A DNA stretch of 64,000 nucleotides from Escherichia coli. GTDB taxonomy: Bacteria; Pseudomonadota; Gammaproteobacteria; Enterobacterales; Enterobacteriaceae. The position numbers and the translations under genes were made by a program. The stretch lies in assembly GCF_030013205.1 (NCBI RefSeq), contig NZ_CP122648.1. The stretch is one strand, 5' to 3'. Below the pieces are notes generated by a model. The model saw nothing but the letters and a program-made list of their open reading frames with translations. It did not search any database and was not told where the DNA came from. This document shows, one piece after another, positions 3,737-37,824 of this stretch (its first letter is position 1; every line of letters starts with the position of its first letter).

Positions 3737-4351
3737 TTAGCCGATTTTGTTACGTTGTGCGAATGTGTAAAGATCCATCAGTGATTTACATTCTAATTTT
3801 TCCATCAGGCGACTTTTATAAGTGCTGACAGTTTTGTTGCTGATGAACATTTTTTCCGCAATGTCATTATTATCCTTGCCATCAAGAATATATCGCATGA
3901 CACTAATTTCTTGTTTCGATAAGGAGTCGAGTTTTTGCTGGTCGGACGTTAAACTTCCAACAAACCGGTTGAGAGAGAAGGGGAAATAGCAGTAGCCATT
4001 TTTTGCAGCTTCAATAGCCGCAATGATATTGTTCATGCCTTCTTTTTTACTCACGAATCCATTAGCGCCAGCATCAGCACAATGTTTCCCGTAAAAATGG
4101 TCATTTTTAGCGGAGACGATAATAATAATTCCGCTATATTGGCGCTTCCTCAGCGTTTCTAACACCTGGATACCGTTAACTCCGGGGATATCGACATCAA
4201 TGATGACGATATCAGGTTTAAGTGTTTCCACCCGCTGAACGGCACTTCCCCCTTCAGTCAACTCCGCTAAGATTTCAATATCGTTTTTGATCAATAAATT
4301 ACGAATTGCTGCGATAGCAAGAGGATGGTCATCAATAATTATTGCGTTCAT
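3737..4351 (-). CDS. evgA: Response regulator EvgA (receiver + LuxR-type HTH)
   Basis: 204-aa ORF MNAIIIDDHPLAIAAIRNLL... with C-terminal LuxR/FixJ HTH; divergent from emrK. Confidence 0.95.
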   Translation of the reverse strand: MNAIIIDDHPLAIAAIRNLLIKNDIEILAELTEGGSAVQRVETLKPDIVIIDVDIPGVNGIQVLETLRKRQYSGIIIIVSAKNDHFYGKHCADAGANGFVSKKEGMNNIIAAIEAAKNGYCYFPFSLNRFVGSLTSDQQKLDSLSKQEISVMRYILDGKDNNDIAEKMFISNKTVSTYKSRLMEKLECKSLMDLYTFAQRNKIG

Positions 4352-7575: not shown

Positions 7576-8904
7576 TTAGCGGCCTTTTGCCAGATATTGC
7601 TCCATCTCTTCTTCCGGCACCATTCCACCTCCCGTCGCCCACACCAGATGAGTGGCATTACGCAGTTGTTCTGCGCTGAAACCGTGCATCTGTTGGTAAC
7701 TTACTGATGCGCACACGCGCTGAGGCCCGGCCATACCCGCCAGTGCCGAAGGTTCAAGACGAATGCCTTCTTCCTGCGCCAGCCAGCCAAGCATGTCATA
7801 CATGGTTTGATCGCTAAGGGTATAGAAGCCATCCAGTAGACGCTCCATTGCCCGCCCGACAAAGCCTGATGCGCGACTAACTGCAAGGCCATCCGCTGCG
7901 GTAAGGTTGTCGATACCAATATCCTGAACAGAAATCTGATCGTGTAATCCAGTATGGACGCCTAACAACATACAAGGGGAGTGCGTTGGTTCGGCAAAAA
8001 AGCAGTGAACATGATCGCCAAACGCCAGTTTAAGTCCGAATGCGACGCCACCAGGACCACCGCCAACACCACACGGCAGATAGACAAACAGAGGGTTATC
8101 AGCATCGACGATACGACCTTGCTCGGCAAATTGCGCTTTAAGACGCTGGCCTGCGACGGAGTACCCAAGGAACAACGTGCGGGAATTCTCGTCATCAATA
8201 AAGAAACAGTTCGGGTCAGACTGCGCTGCTTTACGTCCTTCCTCGACGGCAACACCATAATCTTGCTCATATTCCACGACCGTAACGCCATGGCTGCGCA
8301 GTTTCGCTTTTTTCCACGCCCGGGCATCAGCAGACATATGCACTGTCACCTTAAAGCCAATGCGGGCGCTCATAATGCCGATTGATAACCCCAGATTTCC
8401 GGTTGAGCCCACAGCAATGCTGTATTGACTAAAGAACTGTTTAAACTCCGGAGACAGTAGTTTGCTGTAGTCATCTTCAGGCGTCAGCAACCCCGCTTCC
8501 AGAGCCAGTTTTTCTGCGTGTGCCAGGACTTCATAAATCCCGCCGCGTGCTTTTATGGAGCCGGAAATGGGTAAATGGCTATCTTTTTTCAGTAGCAGTT
8601 GCCCGCTGATCGGTTGTTGATATTCCTTTTCCAGCCGTTTTTGCATAGCCGGAATGGCAACCAGTTCTGATTCAATAATCCCCCCAGTGGCAGCAGTTTC
8701 AGGAAATGCTTTTGCCAGATAGGGTGCAAAACGAGATAAGCGCGCATGGGCGTCCTGAACATCCTGTTCGGTCAGGCCAACATAAGGTAAACCTTCAGCC
8801 AATGAGGTCGTGCCAGGATTAAACCAGGTGGTTTCTTGAAGAGCAACCAGATCCTTTACCAACGGATACTGGGCGATGAGCGAATTCATTTTAGCGTTTT
8901 CCAT
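7576..8904 (-). CDS. dsdA: D-serine dehydratase (PLP-dependent)
   Basis: 442-aa [34 protein letters not shown]... matching DsdA. Confidence 0.95.
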
Positions 8905-26650: not shown

Positions 26651-27808
26651 TCACTCCACCTTTTCATCAATCCAGTCCGCCCACCACTGCATCATCTCCC
26701 GGCGCTTATCGAGATACTGAGCATGGTTGTAAATCCCGCGCACAGATCCGCCGTTGGCATGTGCCAGTTGCACTTCAATAGCATCAGCAGGCCATTCGTG
26801 CTCGTTCATAATCGTGCTGAATTCATGCCTGAATCCGTGACCGCTTTCCAGACCTTCATAGCCGATTTGTTTGATCACAAGCAGTACAGCGTTCTCGCAG
26901 ATTGGCTTCTTCTTATCGTTGCGCCCGGCAAAAACAAACTCTGATACTGGTTTAGTGATTGAGCTTAGTGTAGTGAGAAGTTCAACCACCTGGTCTGACA
27001 TCGGGACAACATGAATTTTGCGTCCCTTCATCACACTGGCGTCGATGGTGATAATCCTGTTTTCAAAATCGACGTTCTTCCATAGCATGGAACGAAGCTC
27101 TTTTGTTCTTAGGGCTGTGTAGCGTAAAACTTTGGTCGCAATGAGCGATACGATACTTCCTGAAAATGTTGCAAGTGCTTTGTTGAATGCCGGGATCTGG
27201 TCGGCAGGTAAAAACGGGAAGTTCTTCTTGCGGTATCCCTTCATGGCGTCAGCAAGGTCAGGTGCCGGGTTATATTTAGCCCTACCAGTAACAATAGCGT
27301 AACGGAAAACCTCGCCGCATCTTCTGCGTGCTTTGTTGGCTCGCTCCATTGCACCGCGATCTTCAAATCTGCGGATTACTTCCAGAAGTTGCATCGGCTC
27401 AATATCCTGAATTTCAAGGCCGCCGATGATAGGTAAAATGTCGTCATCAAACATTTTTGCAAGTTCATTTGCATAGCCTACTGACCAGACTTGCTTCTTG
27501 TGCTCGTACCATTCCTTGTAAATGGCGCTAAAGGAATTGTTGTTAGACGAAGCCTTTTTCGCCTTTACCGGATCGATGCCAACCGAGATGTCTTTCCTCG
27601 CAGTCCATGCTTTATCCCTTGCCTCTTGCAAAGTCATAAGCGGATATTTTCCGACGGTCAGGATTTTCTCCTTACCGTCAATCTTGTAGCGAAGCTGCCA
27701 TACCTTTTTCCCTGATACAGGGACATAAAGATACAGGCCATTACCATCGAGTAGGCGGTATGGTTTTTCTTTCGGCTTTGCTGCTTCAATCTGCTTAACG
27801 GTGAGCAT
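26651..27808 (-). CDS. intS: Tyrosine integrase, IntS/CP4-57 type (DUF4102 arm-binding N-domain)
   Basis: Start taken at MLTVKQIEAAKPKEKPYRLLDGNGLYLYV...; C-terminal ...HGFRHEFSTIMNE... catalytic region; adjacent to an argW-derived att copy. The track's upstream GTG start is judged less likely. Confidence 0.85.
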   Translation of the reverse strand: MLTVKQIEAAKPKEKPYRLLDGNGLYLYVPVSGKKVWQLRYKIDGKEKILTVGKYPLMTLQEARDKAWTARKDISVGIDPVKAKKASSNNNSFSAIYKEWYEHKKQVWSVGYANELAKMFDDDILPIIGGLEIQDIEPMQLLEVIRRFEDRGAMERANKARRRCGEVFRYAIVTGRAKYNPAPDLADAMKGYRKKNFPFLPADQIPAFNKALATFSGSIVSLIATKVLRYTALRTKELRSMLWKNVDFENRIITIDASVMKGRKIHVVPMSDQVVELLTTLSSITKPVSEFVFAGRNDKKKPICENAVLLVIKQIGYEGLESGHGFRHEFSTIMNEHEWPADAIEVQLAHANGGSVRGIYNHAQYLDKRREMMQWWADWIDEKVE

Positions 27809-27969
27809 GGGTAAAAATCCGGTGGGTAAAATTATTTTATCCACTTTTTACCCGTCATGGAGTGCGGCTGTCAACGATCTGACGCGAACCATGACGAACC
27901 GTGAATATACGGAAGGCTTGATATTCAGGGTATTTTGCGGACTGGTACGGATGGGAGCGAACTGATAAA

Positions 27970-28205: not shown

Positions 28206-28454
28206 ATGCGCACACAGGTTGTATTGCAAAAATGGGGTAACAGCATTGCCCTTCGACTAACGGGAAACCTTAAAACCGTTCCGGGTTTTTCAGTGGGTGA
28301 TATCGTCAACGTTGAAATTAGTGAAAAAGGGCTTTTTGTAGAAAAGCCTGCACGCCGTCGCCTGAGTGAAGCCGAACTACTCGCCGGGATAACGCCAGTT
28401 ACAGCGCACGCTGACGAAATTGCCACCCCATTCAATGAGGAGGTTGATTACTGA
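28206..28454 (+). CDS. MazE/PemI/ChpS-family antitoxin (AbrB/SpoVT fold)
   Basis: 82-aa ORF MRTQVVLQKWGNSIALRLTGNLKTVPGFSVGDIVNVEISEKGLFVEKP... Confidence 0.8.
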   Translation: MRTQVVLQKWGNSIALRLTGNLKTVPGFSVGDIVNVEISEKGLFVEKPARRRLSEAELLAGITPVTAHADEIATPFNEEVDY

Positions 28455-28798
28455 TGTTTGTACCTAAGCGTGGTGATATTTGCTGGCTGGATTTTGAGCC
28501 GCAGAAAGGAAAAGAGATCGGAAAGTATCGCCCGGCACTCATACTATCCCATGAGCAATATAACCGACTCACCGGGCTTGTCATATGCTGCCCCATAAGT
28601 ACGAGCATACGAAATGCTCCCACAGAAGTTCCGGTAACAAATCTGGACGCCCCCAGCGTGGTAGCAACCACACTCATTCAAACCCTTGACTGGCGTCAGC
28701 GGAAAGCGCGCTTAATCACAGAGGCAGAAGATGGGGTATTTAATGATGTGCTTGAAAGAGTCATTACTCTGATTGGTGGAGAGCATCTGCTTAAGTAA
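28454..28798 (+). CDS. MazF/PemK-family endoribonuclease toxin
   Basis: 114-aa ORF MFVPKRGDICWLDFEPQKGKEIGKYRPALILSHEQYNRLTGLVICCPISTS..., start overlapping the antitoxin stop. Confidence 0.8.
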   Translation: MFVPKRGDICWLDFEPQKGKEIGKYRPALILSHEQYNRLTGLVICCPISTSIRNAPTEVPVTNLDAPSVVATTLIQTLDWRQRKARLITEAEDGVFNDVLERVITLIGGEHLLK

Positions 28799-28841: not shown

Positions 28842-30113
28842 CTATTCTTTCCAGTCAATCCCATCCAGTAAGCACCCTGCCTCATATTGCCCCACCACCC
28901 AGTCAAGGTTACAGGACTCATAGAACGCGAGGCGATTATACTGAGGCTCGTTTTTTACCAGGCCACGAACGGAACCACGCTGCCAGTACAGACACAGATT
29001 GGCAAGAGGTGTGATCAATACAGCATTGTCCGGGAAAAATGGAACGGTCACAGCCGGGAGATTCCCCAGAACGGGATTTTTAATGATTTCCTCGTTAAGC
29101 AAAATTTCCTGATTCATCTGCGATGGATCAAGACGGTTTATCAAAGGCCATTGTTTACGGACCAGCGTATTGTGACTGCATACGGCCACAATGCCTTCCT
29201 GCCACTGTTCATCAATCATGGATTGCCAGGCATCCAGAACGAGCGCATCTATCGTATGGTGTGTACCGCGTATATTACTTTTCGGTGATGAGACAGAAAG
29301 GCCGCTGATAACCCTTCCCGCCGCTTCATTTCGAAACTTCTGCAACCAGCCCACGCCGCAATCGTCACGCCCCGGATATGTTCCGGGATCTGATACATCG
29401 GCATAGTGCGTACCGTTAAAACCAATCTGAATCAAATCCAGCCATTTCTGGCGTTCAAAAGCAGCCCGGGCGCTTCCTTCAAGACCGTTTGCGGATGCGT
29501 GAGCATCAACATTGTCGTAGTTCAGCGCAAAATCAAAATTAACCTGCTCGCAGCGGTAGCCCCTTGAAACCAGTGAATGCGCCTGTAGTGGCGAGCGGCG
29601 CTCGTGAGGTGGCGATGTACGTGCTAACGGCCCCGAAGCGTCTACCAGCACAACCTGACCTGATATATCCGTAACAGGCACGGGAGTTATTTCAGCAAGG
29701 AAATTTGCCTGCCATCCACTGGCAAGCGTTGCACTCTGGCGGGGGACGGGTTCAACTTCTGACGAATAGCGCGCAGTGTCACCGGAAAAGTGCAAATCCT
29801 TCGGATGCTTTCCGGTTATCGACTCGATAGCGCAATTGAAAACCATCTGAGACTGTTGATTTCGTTGTGATACAACAGAATCAGCAGTGCAATTATAACG
29901 CTCAATGCCGTCGTTATTACCCCCACCGCTTGCAGTATGCAGGGTGTGAAGCTCAAGCTCACGCTCCAGTTTTTGATATTCATTGTCCAGCGCGCGACGC
30001 GTCTCATCGCTTATGCTTGCTGTGTTTGCTTTCAGGCGATTCCGGGACATTAATCCCCTGAGTCGGCTCACTATATCAGCGCCGTGCAAATGTGGAGTAT
30101 TCAGACCGCCCAT
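28842..30113 (-). CDS. P2 gpN-family major capsid protein homologue with divergent N-terminal region
   Basis: Start taken at internal ATG 30113 (TAATG overlap with the upstream gene stop). C-terminal two-thirds align by eye with P2 gpN (...YRCEQVNFDF..., ...GWLQKFRNEAAGRV..., ...GNLPAVTVPFFPDNAVLITPLANL..., ...YESCNLDWVVGQYEAGCL...). Confidence 0.7.
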   Translation of the reverse strand: MGGLNTPHLHGADIVSRLRGLMSRNRLKANTASISDETRRALDNEYQKLERELELHTLHTASGGGNNDGIERYNCTADSVVSQRNQQSQMVFNCAIESITGKHPKDLHFSGDTARYSSEVEPVPRQSATLASGWQANFLAEITPVPVTDISGQVVLVDASGPLARTSPPHERRSPLQAHSLVSRGYRCEQVNFDFALNYDNVDAHASANGLEGSARAAFERQKWLDLIQIGFNGTHYADVSDPGTYPGRDDCGVGWLQKFRNEAAGRVISGLSVSSPKSNIRGTHHTIDALVLDAWQSMIDEQWQEGIVAVCSHNTLVRKQWPLINRLDPSQMNQEILLNEEIIKNPVLGNLPAVTVPFFPDNAVLITPLANLCLYWQRGSVRGLVKNEPQYNRLAFYESCNLDWVVGQYEAGCLLDGIDWKE

Positions 30114-30823
30114 TACTGCCACCCCCGGCAGAGTTCTCTGCCCTCCGCAAGGTCGCGCATTTTTTCTGGATTCTGTCGCGCCGCGCTCCATTGTACAGGT
30201 GAAGGGGCGCTCCTGATTGCGCAGCTTACTGAATCCGGGAGTTTCTCCGGGCAATAACGCAGCGGGCTGGAGGTGTCGCTTTCGGTATCGTTAATCCGGC
30301 CGCGAATCATCCCGACACTTTCAGCAGTATCTGCCGCTTTCAGTGTTTCGCATATTTTCTTTTCTGCGTTATACAGCGGCTGGCCAAGTAGCTCACATAA
30401 ACCACGAATCAATAACAGAACAGGGGTCAGCTCGTTAATCAGTTCGGGAAGTGCTTTTGCAAATATCTCTGCCCGCAACTTATTATCAATGCTTTCGTAA
30501 GCACAACCAGCCTCTGCCGCGTTATAACGACACTCCAGTAGCCTGATGCGCGCTTCATCATGCAATACCCGCAGACGCTCAAGATTTTCTCGCGCCACAC
30601 CCGCCTGAATGGATAATTTCGCGGAGGCTTCCGTTTTTACGCCCAGCGCAGACAGGATTGAGTTCTGCCAGTCACGATCGAGAGATTCCAGCTCCCCTTT
30701 CGTCTGTTCGATAGTCGCTTCCAGATTGGTGATTAATGATTCCTGTTCACTGAGTTTTGCCATGGCTGTATCAAACTGTGCTTTACATACCTGATGTTCG
30801 GCGCTTGCCTGAGTTATATCCAT
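30113..30823 (-). CDS. Coiled-coil protein coupled to the capsid homologue (candidate scaffold, Sid or Psu-like morphogenetic factor)
   Basis: 236-aa helical ORF immediately upstream of and overlapping the capsid gene start; assignment is positional. Confidence 0.4.
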   Translation of the reverse strand: MDITQASAEHQVCKAQFDTAMAKLSEQESLITNLEATIEQTKGELESLDRDWQNSILSALGVKTEASAKLSIQAGVARENLERLRVLHDEARIRLLECRYNAAEAGCAYESIDNKLRAEIFAKALPELINELTPVLLLIRGLCELLGQPLYNAEKKICETLKAADTAESVGMIRGRINDTESDTSSPLRYCPEKLPDSVSCAIRSAPSPVQWSAARQNPEKMRDLAEGRELCRGWQ

Positions 30824-30873
30824 TATTTGCTCCTGTAATACATTTTTTTACTTACGCCGATTTTTTCCATATT

Positions 30874-30934
30874 GCGTAATACATTCCAGCCGATTTTGTT
30901 CTCGTAATACGCTCACAATACTGTTGTATTACGC
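30874..30934. promoter_or_regulatory. Three palindromic operator-like sites GCGTA(A/T)TACGC in the divergent promoter region
   Basis: Sites at 30874-30882, 30903-30912 and 30926-30934 between the coiled-coil gene start (30823) and the RHH gene start (30989); further copies at 31014-31024, 31545-31555 and 31906-31913. Confidence 0.55.
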
Positions 30935-30988
30935 TTTCTTATATCGCGGGTGTTAAATCCCGGCATAAACAATCAGGGAGGCAACACG

Positions 30989-31222
30989 ATGAAAAAACAA
31001 AAGAAAATGCGATGCGTATTACGCTGTATTCGTATCCCGCACGAAATCGACCATAAAATAAATCAGATATGTGAGGACAGAGAGATGAACTACTCCCAGT
31101 GCGTCAGAATGTTTATCAGTCAGGGAATTAAGGCCGGGGAAAAGCAGGAAGAAGACCACAACGGGCGCAATGTAGCGGGGGATGTGTGGGCCTGGGCAAA
31201 TGACCAGAACCACACGACGTAA
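30989..31222 (+). CDS. Small ribbon-helix-helix-like putative transcriptional regulator
   Basis: 77-aa product MKKQKKMRCVLRCIRIPHEIDHKINQICEDREMNYSQCVRMFISQGIKAG...; GGGAGG RBS 8 nt upstream; divergent from the capsid operon. Confidence 0.45.
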   Translation: MKKQKKMRCVLRCIRIPHEIDHKINQICEDREMNYSQCVRMFISQGIKAGEKQEEDHNGRNVAGDVWAWANDQNHTT

Positions 31223-31272
31223 TACAGAAATAACGCAGCCGGTCACACTCGCTGGCTGTGTTATACAAATCA

Positions 31273-31455
31273 CTATGAAGTTTTCGACTTCCTGCGCTTA
31301 GTAATGCGTACAAACGACTCAAGCGTACAAAAACAAGCCCCACACTCAATATTGTTGCACTGGTAATACGTTCTGTAGATGTTTTGTTCGTGTTCTTCCA
31401 ACGAACGACCACGGGTGCGAGCTGAAGCGCCACAGGCCGGGCAAGGGAAAGACAT
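31273..31455 (-). CDS. Ogr/Delta-family zinc-finger late-gene transcriptional activator
   Basis: 60-aa ORF MSFPCPACGASARTRGRSLEEHEQNIYRTYYQCNNIECGACFCTLESF... with the CPxC...RT.R...YxQCxNxxCxxxFxTxES pattern of P2 Ogr. Confidence 0.8.
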   Translation of the reverse strand: MSFPCPACGASARTRGRSLEEHEQNIYRTYYQCNNIECGACFCTLESFVRITKRRKSKTS

Positions 31456-31817
31456 ATCGCGCTCCTCTTACTGGCGTGAAATTTAACCTATTATATCTTC
31501 CGTTGCCTCCTCTGGCTGTATCAAATAAATCCGCGATGGTCGCTGCGTATTACGCGCAGACACACCGTTCCCATGCTCACTCCTCACATTCCCCGTATCA
31601 ATTCTCTCTTGCCGTAAGAACGGCTCTGGCTGGCGATAAAACTAACCCGGTCAGGCATTCCCGCAGTCTTTAGCGAAAGATGTAATTTACCCCCTGAAAC
31701 GCGGGCTGTTCCCCCGTCACCTGCGCGCGAAAAACTCACCGTTTTTTGTGCACGCACGAAATCGCCCTCCGGGCGCGCCAGTACCGGGCCGGATGGGCAA
31801 AAAGTTACTCTAAAAAA

Positions 31818-31845
31818 TTGTGCAAATTTGTGCACTTTTGTGCAG
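31818..31845. promoter_or_regulatory. Three direct TTGTGCA repeats with 10-bp phasing (operator-like)
   Basis: TTGTGCAAATTTGTGCACTTTTGTGCAG; a fourth TTGTGCAC at 31746-31753. Confidence 0.45.
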
Positions 31846-32059
31846 ATGAACAACAGCGTCAAAAAGAGTGCTTTTGAGAGATTTTTTATGGCAACTGCGC
31901 CGCGTGTATTACGTTTTTACCATCCCCGCCGCGCATGTACATACTTCATTTTTCTGCCAAACAACAGGGCAACTCCCCGTGACTGACAGCCCCAAAAAAT
32001 CAATGATTAATGTTGCGTCTTTGTTAGAGGTCAGATCAGTTGTTTTGGGACTCTGCCTC

Positions 32060-32383
32060 AAAATCCGGTAGGGGGTGCGGAAACGGGTTACAAAGGTTAC
32101 ACCCCCCTAAAACACACTATAATCATATGATTTTAAAACATATTTCTTGTAACCTTTTTGAGGTTACAGAAGGTTACACGAGGTTACAGCTCTCAAAAAC
32201 AGATTAATTATCAATTAATTATAAATTTAACCTGTAACCAACAGTAACCACTACATAAAGGTTACATGTAACCCTGTTGTAACCCGTTTGTAACCTTTTA
32301 AATTTATTATAATATATTGATATATAATACGTTTTTCTGTTTGTAACCTTTGTAACCCGTTTCCGCACCCCCCCCCGGATTTT
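32060..32383. repeat. Block of about 14 GGTTACA/TGTAACC repeats flanked by near-perfect inverted repeats of about 40 bp (candidate attP-like or origin region)
   Basis: Left arm AAAATCCGGTAGGGGGTGCGGAAACGGGTTACAAAGGTTACA (32060-32101) is the reverse complement of the right arm (about 32339-32383); AT-rich core with both-orientation GTAACC repeats. Confidence 0.6.
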
Positions 32384-32628: not shown

Positions 32629-33630
32629 TTACTCTACTGGCTCTTTTTGTTCAGTGAATGCCATGTTAGCTATCGGGTTAAACCTCATGGCATCCGCCAG
32701 ATAGTCGGGGGAAAAATGCGCATAAGTCATCGTTTGCTGGATAGTCGCATGTCCAAGAATCCGTTGTAATGTAACGATATTCCCACCGTTAATCATAAAG
32801 TGTGTGGCAAATGTATGACGCATGACATGCGTAGCCTGCCCCTTCGGTAAATCCGGCTTCACCTCCTGAAGGATCTCCCGGAACTTCAGATAATCAACCT
32901 GATACAACAACCCCGTCCGGCGGGTCTTAATCAGCGGCACGACCGAATCAGCCACAGGAACCGAACGGGATTTTCCGTTTTTGGTGTTAAAGAACGTCAC
33001 CCGGTTGCCAATGATGTGCTCTCCACGTAGTTCCGATGCTTCACTCCATCGGGCACCAGTAGAAAGACACAGAATGGCAACACGACGCGCATCACCCTCC
33101 AGTCGCTCAAGAAGCCGCTCAATCTCATCATCAGAAAGAAAGGCCATCTCTGTATTCTGAATTTTTAGCTTGCGTATACCGCGTACAGGGTTCGGGTTGT
33201 GAAAGACCTCAGCTTCAATCAGCACCGTGAACATGGTAGACAGAACGCACAAGTCACGATTAATGCTGGATGGCATTAAGCCGGCCTGTAATTTCTCTGA
33301 CCGATACTCAAGCATAAATTTTTGCGTCATCTGGCTGGCACGCGGATCTCCCATTTCACGAATCACTTTCTCCATCCGGATCCTGTAGGTATCACCGTAA
33401 GCCTGGTTACGGCCATCAAGCATCCACCATATATCAAGCAGCTCTGATAATCTCCGTCGATCAGCAGGTTTAGCCAGCCATGGGTTGTTATGGAAATTCT
33501 GTAAAATATGTTCTTTGAAGGCCTCCGCACTCCCTTTCCTGACAAAAATTTTACGTATCCGTTTGCCGTACGCCCCTTGGGGCCTGATATCGAGCAGCCA
33601 TCGCCCATCATCCATCTTTCTGATCGACAT
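32629..33630 (-). CDS. P2-type tyrosine integrase
   Basis: 333-aa ORF MSIRKMDDGRWLLDIRPQGAYGKRIRKIF...LSELLDIWW...INRDLCVLSTMFTVLIEAE...ILCLSTGARWSEA...GQATHVMRHTFATHFMINGGNIVTLQRILGHATIQQTMTYAHF matches P2 Int in length and motifs. Confidence 0.8.
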   Translation of the reverse strand: MSIRKMDDGRWLLDIRPQGAYGKRIRKIFVRKGSAEAFKEHILQNFHNNPWLAKPADRRRLSELLDIWWMLDGRNQAYGDTYRIRMEKVIREMGDPRASQMTQKFMLEYRSEKLQAGLMPSSINRDLCVLSTMFTVLIEAEVFHNPNPVRGIRKLKIQNTEMAFLSDDEIERLLERLEGDARRVAILCLSTGARWSEASELRGEHIIGNRVTFFNTKNGKSRSVPVADSVVPLIKTRRTGLLYQVDYLKFREILQEVKPDLPKGQATHVMRHTFATHFMINGGNIVTLQRILGHATIQQTMTYAHFSPDYLADAMRFNPIANMAFTEQKEPVE

Positions 33631-37304: not shown

Positions 37305-37824
37305 TGCACGCCTCCCGGATACGAATACGGGCAACAGAGACCAGACGGGATGCCGGAAGCAGGGCGCGCGCTTCGCGCTCACTGGCGGCGGTAACGGTAT
37401 GAAGGCGGATATTTTTACCGTGGCACTGCATAAAGCGCCAGATAAAATCAGGGCGTGTTGATATAGCCATTTTGGCGGCTCCTTTGTCTAATTTACGGAG
37501 TCTCGCCAGCACGCTGCTAAACATGGTGGCGGGACGTAACAGGGTTAGCAGACTGGTGACAAAGAAACCAGCAGGCCTTACGGCCTCCCCATTACGCCCC
37601 GCCATAATACGGGAAAGGGTGGTATTACGGGCACAAAAAAACCGCATTACGGAAATATAGCGGCTACCCGCTTTGTCAATCAGGCTGCTAAACCCGGCAC
37701 CCGCTTTATGAGGTGCGGGCAAACGATACGCCATGACAAAAAAGCGAGTCAAGCAATATTGCAAATTATTTTTGCGTGATTGCGCTGAGTAATTGATTTT
37801 TAAGAGTAAAAAAGCCATAATCAT
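37297..37824 (-). CDS. Hypothetical protein (basic, Arg/Ala-rich)
   Basis: 175-aa ORF, first gene downstream of alpA; true start may be the internal MAYRLPAPHKAG... Confidence 0.35.
   Translation of the reverse strand: MIMAFLLLKINYSAQSRKNNLQYCLTRFFVMAYRLPAPHKAGAGFSSLIDKAGSRYISVMRFFCARNTTLSRIMAGRNGEAVRPAGFFVTSLLTLLRPATMFSSVLARLRKLDKGAAKMAISTRPDFIWRFMQCHGKNIRLHTVTAASEREARALLPASRLVSVARIRIREACNV

Follow-up and report, generated by a model that had tools for sequence, protein, structure and literature searches.

P4 is the textbook phage satellite, and its late genes are described as activated by Ogr/delta proteins; P2 Cox activates its promoter PLL, and Ogr activates Psid. To our knowledge, the P4 late promoters have been described without a repressor. 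Ribbon-helix-helix (RHH) regulators such as Arc, MetJ, CopG and omega use a beta-ribbon that reads a short dyad in one major groove. Here we analyse a 64,000-nucleotide stretch of Escherichia coli DNA (RefSeq assembly GCF_030013205.1, contig NZ_CP122648.1; 100% identical to strain ETEC1748; the whole stretch is called the window) carrying a P4-like satellite of ~12.5 kb, in which short palindromes with the core GTAWTAC cluster around a gene for a 77-amino-acid RHH protein, a divergent capsid operon, an ogr-like gene and the cohesive-end (cos) region. We think it probable that the palindromes are operators of the RHH protein, which would be a late-expressed repressor feeding back on both late promoters of the region. 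This putative regulator-operator pair is previously undescribed and of a familiar type; the literature that we searched held no description of the protein family, or of a repressor at these late promoters. The genes concerned are as follows.

30989-31222, plus strand: gene for the 77-amino-acid RHH protein, the proposed repressor
28842-30823, minus strand: late operon, consisting of the gene for a 236-amino-acid protein (30113-30823), then a P2-family major capsid homologue (28842-30113); mazEF follows the operon
31273-31455, minus strand: ogr/delta-like gene for a zinc-finger late activator of 60 amino acids

Several described systems resemble parts of this arrangement. Arc and Mnt (P22 immI) have no sequence family relation above threshold to the protein studied here. 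An Arc tetramer occupies a single operator of 21 bp made of two half-sites that abut, whereas here single 9-11 bp palindromes lie 22-41 bp apart and are interleaved with an activator box; and while Arc and Mnt target an antirepressor gene, the putative target here is the satellite's late morphogenetic operon. The omega repressor (pSM19035, inc18) binds contiguous cooperative heptad arrays, in contrast to the isolated palindromes of this locus, several of which lie beside cos and off recognisable promoters. The RHH antitoxins show two resemblances: the weak profile matches of our protein are to RelB/DinJ, VapB and CopG antitoxins, and the operator word seems to resemble the TGTAAT-type hexads of the relO operator. 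However, no toxin adjoins the regulator here, and the island's own mazEF is separate and motif-free.

Relative to the P2 and P4 late promoters (PP/PO, Psid and PLL, with a box at about -55), the locus has a box of the same type with one mismatch, at a Psid-like distance from the first late gene. No repressor is reported at those promoters in the literature searched, whereas the box here is flanked by, and contains, the putative operators of an extra regulator. Stl of the Staphylococcus aureus pathogenicity islands and AlpA of the phage-inducible chromosomal islands resemble the proposed repressor in that each is encoded by a satellite and controls when the satellite's genes are expressed in relation to the helper. 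Stl, however, is a helix-turn-helix (HTH) repressor of early excision-replication genes that is relieved by helper proteins, while the RHH protein would act at late promoters and is apparently a late product itself.

The original prediction, made from the sequence of the window, held that at least six copies of a palindromic 9-11-mer lie in about 1 kb and look like the operators of a repressor that acts as a dimer, with the RHH protein as the simplest candidate. All six of its sites are present (GCGTAATACAT at 30874, TCGTAATACGC at 30902, TTGTATTACGC at 30924, GCGTATTACGC at 31014 and 31545, and GTGTATTACGT at 31904), and the clustering is indeed far from random: GTAWTAC occurs nine times in 30824-31960, against 0.21 expected (Poisson p 1.7e-12), and 11 times in the other 62.9 kb. 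The count was slightly understated, as three cores (30835, 31219 and 31363) had been missed. The dyads are also present, but only two copies are perfect 11-mers (GCGTATTACGC, at 31014 and 31545; 0.05 expected per window) and three are perfect 9-mers (CGTAWTACG at 30903, 31015 and 31546); the element common to all nine sites is the 7-bp core. An unbiased k-mer count gave GTAWTAC as the most over-represented 7-mer of the region, with TTGTGCA as the second enriched family, and the longer word GTAWTACG has 16 matches in the 64-kb window against 2.6 expected, a count reached in no shuffle. Six of the nine cores are non-coding and three lie in coding sequence. We number the sites S0 to S8 from left to right (window 30835-31912).

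30834-30842 (core 30835-30841): S0, palindrome TGTAATACA, just 5' of the ribosome-binding site of the 236-amino-acid gene
30874-30884 (core 30876-30882): S1, palindrome GCGTAATACAT, between the Ogr box and the capsid-side -10
30902-30912 (core start 30904): S2, palindrome TCGTAATACGC, with the perfect 9-mer CGTAATACG at 30903-30911
30924-30934 (core 30926-30932): S3, palindrome TTGTATTACGC, 60 bp 5' of the RHH start codon
31014-31024 (core start 31016): S4, palindrome GCGTATTACGC, within the RHH coding sequence, codons Cys-Val-Leu-Arg
31217-31227 (core start 31219): S5, core copy ACGTAATACAG, at the RHH stop codon
31361-31371 (core start 31363): S6, core copy TGGTAATACGT, in Tyr-Tyr codons of the ogr-like coding sequence, status uncertain
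31545-31555 (core start 31547): S7, palindrome GCGTATTACGC, 95 bp 5' of the ogr start codon and ~140 bp left of the cos homology
31904-31914 (core start 31906): S8, palindrome GTGTATTACGT, to the right of the final cos repeat at a distance of 68 bp

The divergent promoter region, for which three sites had been proposed, thus holds those three and a fourth, S0. One GTATTACG, at 37622, stands isolated between the matches to C4 antisense RNA and isrK.

A full HMMER search with the 77-amino-acid protein against 1.84 billion representatives yielded four RHH homologues at 31-37% identity, in lineages that we call L161, L162, L163 and L167. Gene order is the same in all four (capsid gene, ~240-amino-acid gene, divergent small gene, ogr, cos, iterons, alpha), and each lineage has its own odd palindrome of 9-11 bp in the same places, giving four motif types over five lineages. 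Copies in these sister lineages stand between the divergent genes, to the left of cos or 5' of ogr, and to the right of cos at 54-68 bp from its last repeat. The residues of the RHH strand co-vary with the flanking and centre-proximal bases of the motif, as listed.

Window: strand RCVLRCIRIP, motif CGTAWTACG
L167: strand KSVLRTMRIP, motif TGTAWTACA (6 copies, 0.11 expected)
L163: strand RSVLRTIRIP, motif TGTAWTAC(A/G) (GTAWTAC with mostly T/A flanks, 7 copies, 1.1 expected)
L162: strand KSIRRTIRIP, motif TGTCWGACA (3 copies, 0.05 expected)
L161: motif CTGTATAACAG (8 matches at no more than two mismatches, 2.0 expected)

The putative operators therefore appear to change with the regulator across lineages while their positions are kept. 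The neighbouring Ogr-like protein diverges as well, and matrices of overall identity favour neither the RHH nor the Ogr protein. Because the Ogr-like protein also varies, our case rests on a separate Ogr box, on the geometry of the sites and on a nonsense codon in the ogr-like gene of L167.

Canonical P2 and P4 late promoters carry the box TGT-N12-ACA, and one box serving two divergent promoters has been proposed for the P2-like phage Smp131 (PMC3931495). No exact TGT-N12-ACA exists anywhere in the island of the window, which retains a box with one mismatch between the divergent genes. In L167, L163 and L161 the palindromes have an exact box between them, and L162 has one with a single mismatch (TGT-N12-AGA). 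The centre of the window box is 85.5 bp from the start codon of the 236-amino-acid gene, compared with 81.5 bp for P4 Psid, where TGT-N12-ACA boxes lie 81.5 and 43.5 bp upstream of the sid start codon; over the five lineages the box centre is 85.5-101.5 bp from the ~240-amino-acid start codon and 79.5-82.5 bp from that of the small gene. We set a start site to either side of the box, at 55.5 bp from its centre, and read the hexamers at -12 to -7, with the following results.

30900-30917: Ogr/delta-type box TCT-N12-ACA, one mismatch, centre 30908.5, between the divergent late promoters
30860-30865, minus strand: AAAAAT, predicted -10 of the Psid-like late promoter of the capsid operon, transcription start ~30853
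30953-30958, plus strand: predicted -10 TTAAAT of the RHH gene promoter, transcription start ~30964-30965
Window hexamers: small-gene side TTAAAT (with a 1-bp shift), capsid side AAAAAT
L163 hexamers: small-gene side GATAAT, capsid side GAGGAT
L161 hexamers: small-gene side GATAAT, capsid side AAATAT
L167 hexamers: small-gene side GACAAT, capsid side AAAGAT
L162 hexamers (after a 1-bp correction of the box start): small-gene side CAGAAT, capsid side AAAAAT

In all five lineages the second base of the capsid-side hexamer is A and the sixth is T. Scanning the control region for consensus sigma-70 promoters gave none, a result that fits activator dependence and gives it no direct support. These alignments indicate a predicted pair of divergent, activator-dependent promoters sharing one box.

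Against these predicted starts the palindromes fall at positions expected of repressor sites. A palindrome lies at -34/-35 of the small-gene promoter in four lineages (S3 in the window, at about -35 there and about -76 of the predicted capsid promoter), 60-61 bp 5' of the RHH start codon. This putative operator at the regulator's own predicted promoter, found in all lineages except L162, would be in the classic position for self-regulation. On the capsid side, palindromes lie at -25 to -27 in the window (S1, about -26), L167 (-27) and L162 (-25), and at +12 to +15 of the predicted transcript in the window (S0, about +15) and L161 (+12), in each case formed by the lineage's own motif. S2 lies within the N12 spacer of the Ogr box, a position filled in the window lineage only. 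As a distinct Ogr box lies between or around the palindromes in lineage after lineage, the palindromes themselves are, on this comparison, apparently not Ogr sites.

The 77-amino-acid protein is modelled with the strand-helix-helix fold of ~45 residues that defines the RHH group, and its sub-threshold matches are to RHH families exclusively. The PHROG family 'Arc-like repressor' was matched by the homologue P0023 at 2.7e-4 and by the window protein and the homologue P0026 at 0.04-0.05. For the window protein, Pfam gave weak matches to CopG_antitoxin (0.094) and RelB (0.25), and NCBIfam gave RelB_DinJ (0.0039), VapB (0.0043) and ORF56 (0.0075), all far under their cut-offs. A sequence search against solved structures gave nothing meaningful, and Foldseek with the first model of the protein gave no significant match. 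The model and the weak profile matches point to membership of the RHH group. Arg12, Arg15 and Pro17 of the strand are invariant across homologues. A 7-11 bp dyad can be read in one major groove and so suits an RHH beta-ribbon rather than two helix-turn-helix units; the odd palindromes and the invariant residues are consistent with a dimer that would insert its beta-ribbon there. Transcribed convergently with ogr, the RHH gene is monocistronic and has no toxin partner beside it.

Within the window's own lineage, the sites are conserved where their surroundings are not. The late module is present in 56 of 5,426 E. coli genomes, all at least 95% identical. Among 12 alleles, none of the 42 columns in the 7-mer cores of the six non-coding sites varies, against 98 of 718 other non-coding columns (Fisher p 0.004); the S0 core is among those without change, and the S7 9-mer is constant while 16 of its 80 flanking columns vary. 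In the allele L009, unrelated sequence replaces the segment right of cos, yet GCGTATTACGTTTTTA stands at the S8 position. Allele L058 has all nine sites identical, and the motif is kept in alleles with different iterons and replication modules.

Searches elsewhere gave little that was new. Word-indexed protein searches with the RHH, 236-amino-acid and Ogr-like proteins returned near-identical E. coli sequences only, a metagenome scan with an RHH alignment of three sequences returned window-type alleles only, and IMG/VR gave close relatives only. When 100,044 species genomes were scanned for three consecutive motif copies, 101 matched; those listed were unrelated repeats in other phyla, and none of these was enterobacterial. 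L002, at one point taken for a 53%-identical relative, proved to be a noisy long-read assembly of the same allele.

The coding copies call for a different reading. Val-Leu-Arg in the RHH strand is specified by the rare codons GTA TTA (or TTG) CGN in the window (31014-31024), in L161 (2359-2365) and in L167 (8025-8031). The latter two use the same word GTATTAC, though the L161 operator differs. Encoding these residues in this way thus places a GTATTAC-like word in the repressor's own gene, whatever the operator of the lineage. S4, which the original prediction had listed among the operators, is present but probably a by-product of coding, though it may also be used as an operator. S5 is lost (G to A) in three of 12 alleles and is probably a chance copy.

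Taken together, these observations suggest the following mechanism. The helper's Ogr, or the satellite's own Ogr-like protein, would act from the shared box, whose distance of ~55 bp to either start matches the P2 and P4 late promoters, to activate both divergent late promoters, so that the capsid operon and the RHH gene would be transcribed together. RHH dimers would then occupy the palindromes that separate the box from the two -10 hexamers (at about -26 for the capsid promoter and -35 for the RHH promoter), as well as that at about +15 of the capsid transcript and, in the window lineage only, the one within the Ogr box. Bound RHH protein would block RNA polymerase or the activator, so that the late genes and the RHH gene alike would come under negative feedback. 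The RHH protein probably also binds the copies that lie 5' of the ogr-like gene and to either side of cos.

Some findings weigh against this reading. The sites between the divergent genes are spaced at 22, 28 and 41 bp, wider than the abutting subsites usual for cooperative RHH binding. The structure model is of modest confidence (pLDDT 68), and neither Pfam nor NCBIfam gave a match above threshold. The start-site and promoter positions are predictions. The L161 motif is an imperfect palindrome, and L162 has no palindrome at the RHH-promoter position, while its copy right of cos is unlike its own operators. Finally, the Ogr-like protein too differs in every lineage, and co-variation by itself singles out neither protein. 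Even so, a set of operators for a dimeric repressor, most simply the RHH protein, is the reading best supported by the comparative evidence, and the proposed control of the morphogenetic genes stands as its putative consequence. The accompanying proposal that the late-activator gene is controlled as well remains a conjecture, since the site 95 bp upstream of it has no consistent relation to a promoter.

The cos region and the sites beside it bear on a further explanation.

31690-31845: cos region, with TTGTGCA repeats at 31746, 31818, 31828 and 31838

This segment aligns with a portal-gene-adjacent region of P2-like prophages in ~1,070 of 5,426 complete E. coli genomes. Identity to these prophages is 80-84%, and the region is unannotated there; a middle part of ~28 bp (~31766-31793) is wholly different between satellite and helper-type sequences. 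The TTGTGCA repeats were considered as part of the operator system and rejected, as they are cos. The site that had been placed near these repeats is therefore present and adjoins cos, while the repeats are unrelated to the motif.

We searched for a consistent promoter relation of S7 or S8 and found none, and the role of S8 may not be transcriptional. S7, S8 and their counterparts could instead serve packaging by marking or shielding cos, an explanation that is compatible with repression by the RHH protein at the divergent promoters. In its favour, four lineages with unrelated flanks have a palindrome to the right of cos, at 54-68 bp from the last repeat, and in L167, L163 and L161 this is the lineage's own palindrome, at +54 to +64; no convincing promoter was found at S8; and one or two own palindromes lie left of cos in other lineages at no constant distance from ogr. 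However, L161 has no copy left of cos, nothing links the palindromes to terminase, and RHH proteins are overwhelmingly transcription regulators. L162 is a chimera: its cos and right flank resemble those of the window and include a window-type copy, which mismatches the L162 operators. We therefore regard a packaging role as unlikely. L162 also has, left of cos, a tandem direct repeat of ~130 bp (~3820-4080), with one TGTCAGACA per copy. A bolder version, in which the RHH-palindrome system has two jobs, shutting the divergent late promoters and placing dimers on either side of cos that distinguish it, or temporarily hide it, from the helper terminase, is speculative, and we give it a low probability. 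If true, it would be a satellite-encoded, lineage-specific packaging switch, in a satellite that also supplies its own capsid protein.

It is similarly doubtful that the palindromes are bound by a protein of the helper phage or host, such as a Cox-like protein or repressor, with the lineage motifs reflecting adaptation to different helpers. P4 promoters are known to respond to helper proteins, the motif differs between lineages that may use different helpers, and copies flank cos, which is handled by the helper terminase. Yet a complete helper-type prophage with the same cos, other than the source strain's actual helper, has no cluster, with eight scattered cores in the 48-kb stretch around it, and the late regions of 46 P2-like phages have almost no core copies. 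The palindrome at -34/-35 of the RHH gene's predicted promoter in four lineages likewise argues for the RHH protein itself.

The palindromes could also be sites of the divergent Ogr-like activator, its specificity having shifted from TGT-N12-ACA to GTAWTAC. The absence of an exact TGT-N12-ACA from the island would fit, as would the placement of S2 at about -54, where a box is expected, and the divergence of the Ogr-like protein (60 amino acids, with a cysteine spacing of X24 rather than X22), which differs per lineage as the motif does. Against this, three sister lineages hold exact boxes at a P4 Psid-like distance in addition to their own palindromes, the window retains its one-mismatch box around S2, and a compact dyad of 7-11 bp is unlike an 18-bp hyphenated dyad. 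Positions -26 and +15 suit a repressor and not an activator. Moreover, the ogr-like gene of L167 has an in-frame TAA at codon 6 (FPCP*CG; ~8443-8445), as do those of L168 and L169, and all three keep the full palindrome set; the rest of the L167 late module is intact. We thus consider this explanation decidedly improbable.

Other proteins encoded in the island, namely the AlpA/Vis-like HTH protein, the second tyrosine recombinase, the alpha primase and MazE, are very poor candidates. L058 has an HTH protein only 27% identical and a different integrase beside its nine identical sites, and the HTH protein of L167 has no significant similarity to that of the window. The motif persists despite the changes in iterons and replication modules, the GGTTACA iterons being a separate repeat family of the alpha type. 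The core is common to L163 and L167, in which hicAB or parE/relB takes the place of mazEF, and the mazEF promoter of the window has no motif copies. Chance or coding constraint without function, which would suit the three coding copies (S4 being explained by its codons and S5 not conserved), is refuted for the six non-coding copies by their enrichment (p ~1e-12), by cores that stay invariant amid varying flanks and by different but equivalent palindromes at the same positions in four other lineages, and is barely credible for the cluster as a whole.

The element that carries these sites is P4-like by several marks: an integrase at a tRNA gene, an alpha primase-helicase, an AlpA/Vis-like regulator, an Icd-like gene with C4/isrK-type RNA and a delta/Ogr-like activator. 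It lies at tRNA-Arg beside the CPS-53 integrase, in tandem with a CPS-53-type element that has intS and gtrA-family genes (window 26651-27844 and 39199-40714). Elsewhere, the late module is joined to other integrases, between hpt and gcd (L058) and near rpoD/mug (L167). At 37522-37716 on the minus strand, in or beside the Icd-like gene, Rfam gives C4 antisense RNA at 79.7 bits and isrK at 52.1 bits, two matches that presumably mark a P4 cI-type immunity RNA region. The island also holds a second tyrosine recombinase, the GGTTACA iterons and a 1.2-kb non-coding stretch. A 42-nucleotide inverted repeat (95% complementary, 240 bp apart) surrounds the iterons (32060-32383), and the recombinase gene (32629-33630) lies directly after the alpha primase gene, beside these repeats. 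An invertible switch at the repeats was rejected, as the inner part has the same orientation in all eight related loci compared.

The late operon is distinctive in its content. The capsid homologue (phrog_70, 3.4e-76) has 423 residues, with ~118 extra at the N-terminus and 34-38% identity to capsids of true P2-like phages. It fills the slot after a Sid-like gene: the 236-amino-acid protein has the position and length of P4 Sid, and aligns with it over 134 colinear columns in hhalign (E 5.9e-4, probability 29%), with a BLASTP E of 1.3 and no PHROG or Pfam family match. The PGAP annotation of the island lists no psu-like product, and the PHROG and NCBIfam matches of the ten island proteins scanned include none either, in a survey that made no search with Psu itself. 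An own capsid gene with a weakly Sid-like neighbour is the layout of all five lineages, and the surveys of P4-like satellites that we consulted make no mention of it. After the capsid gene, at the island end, stand mazEF in the window (28206-28798), hicAB in L163 (434-1026) and parE/relB in L167 (5179-5734), and this toxin-antitoxin slot behaves like a cargo hotspot.

The locus points to a sub-family of P4-like satellites, five lineages in our comparison, with its own P2-type capsid gene. This sub-family seems to place a small repressor directly at late promoters that depend on an activator, with an operator code that differs by lineage. Should this be confirmed, the lineages would form a compact natural set of RHH-operator specificity variants in which residue-to-base changes can be identified. 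The practical value is modest, lying in better annotation of an unnamed protein family and promoter type, and no principle is overturned. For the biology of these elements, the arrangement suggests that late expression is limited or timed by the satellites themselves, which would then do more than follow the helper.

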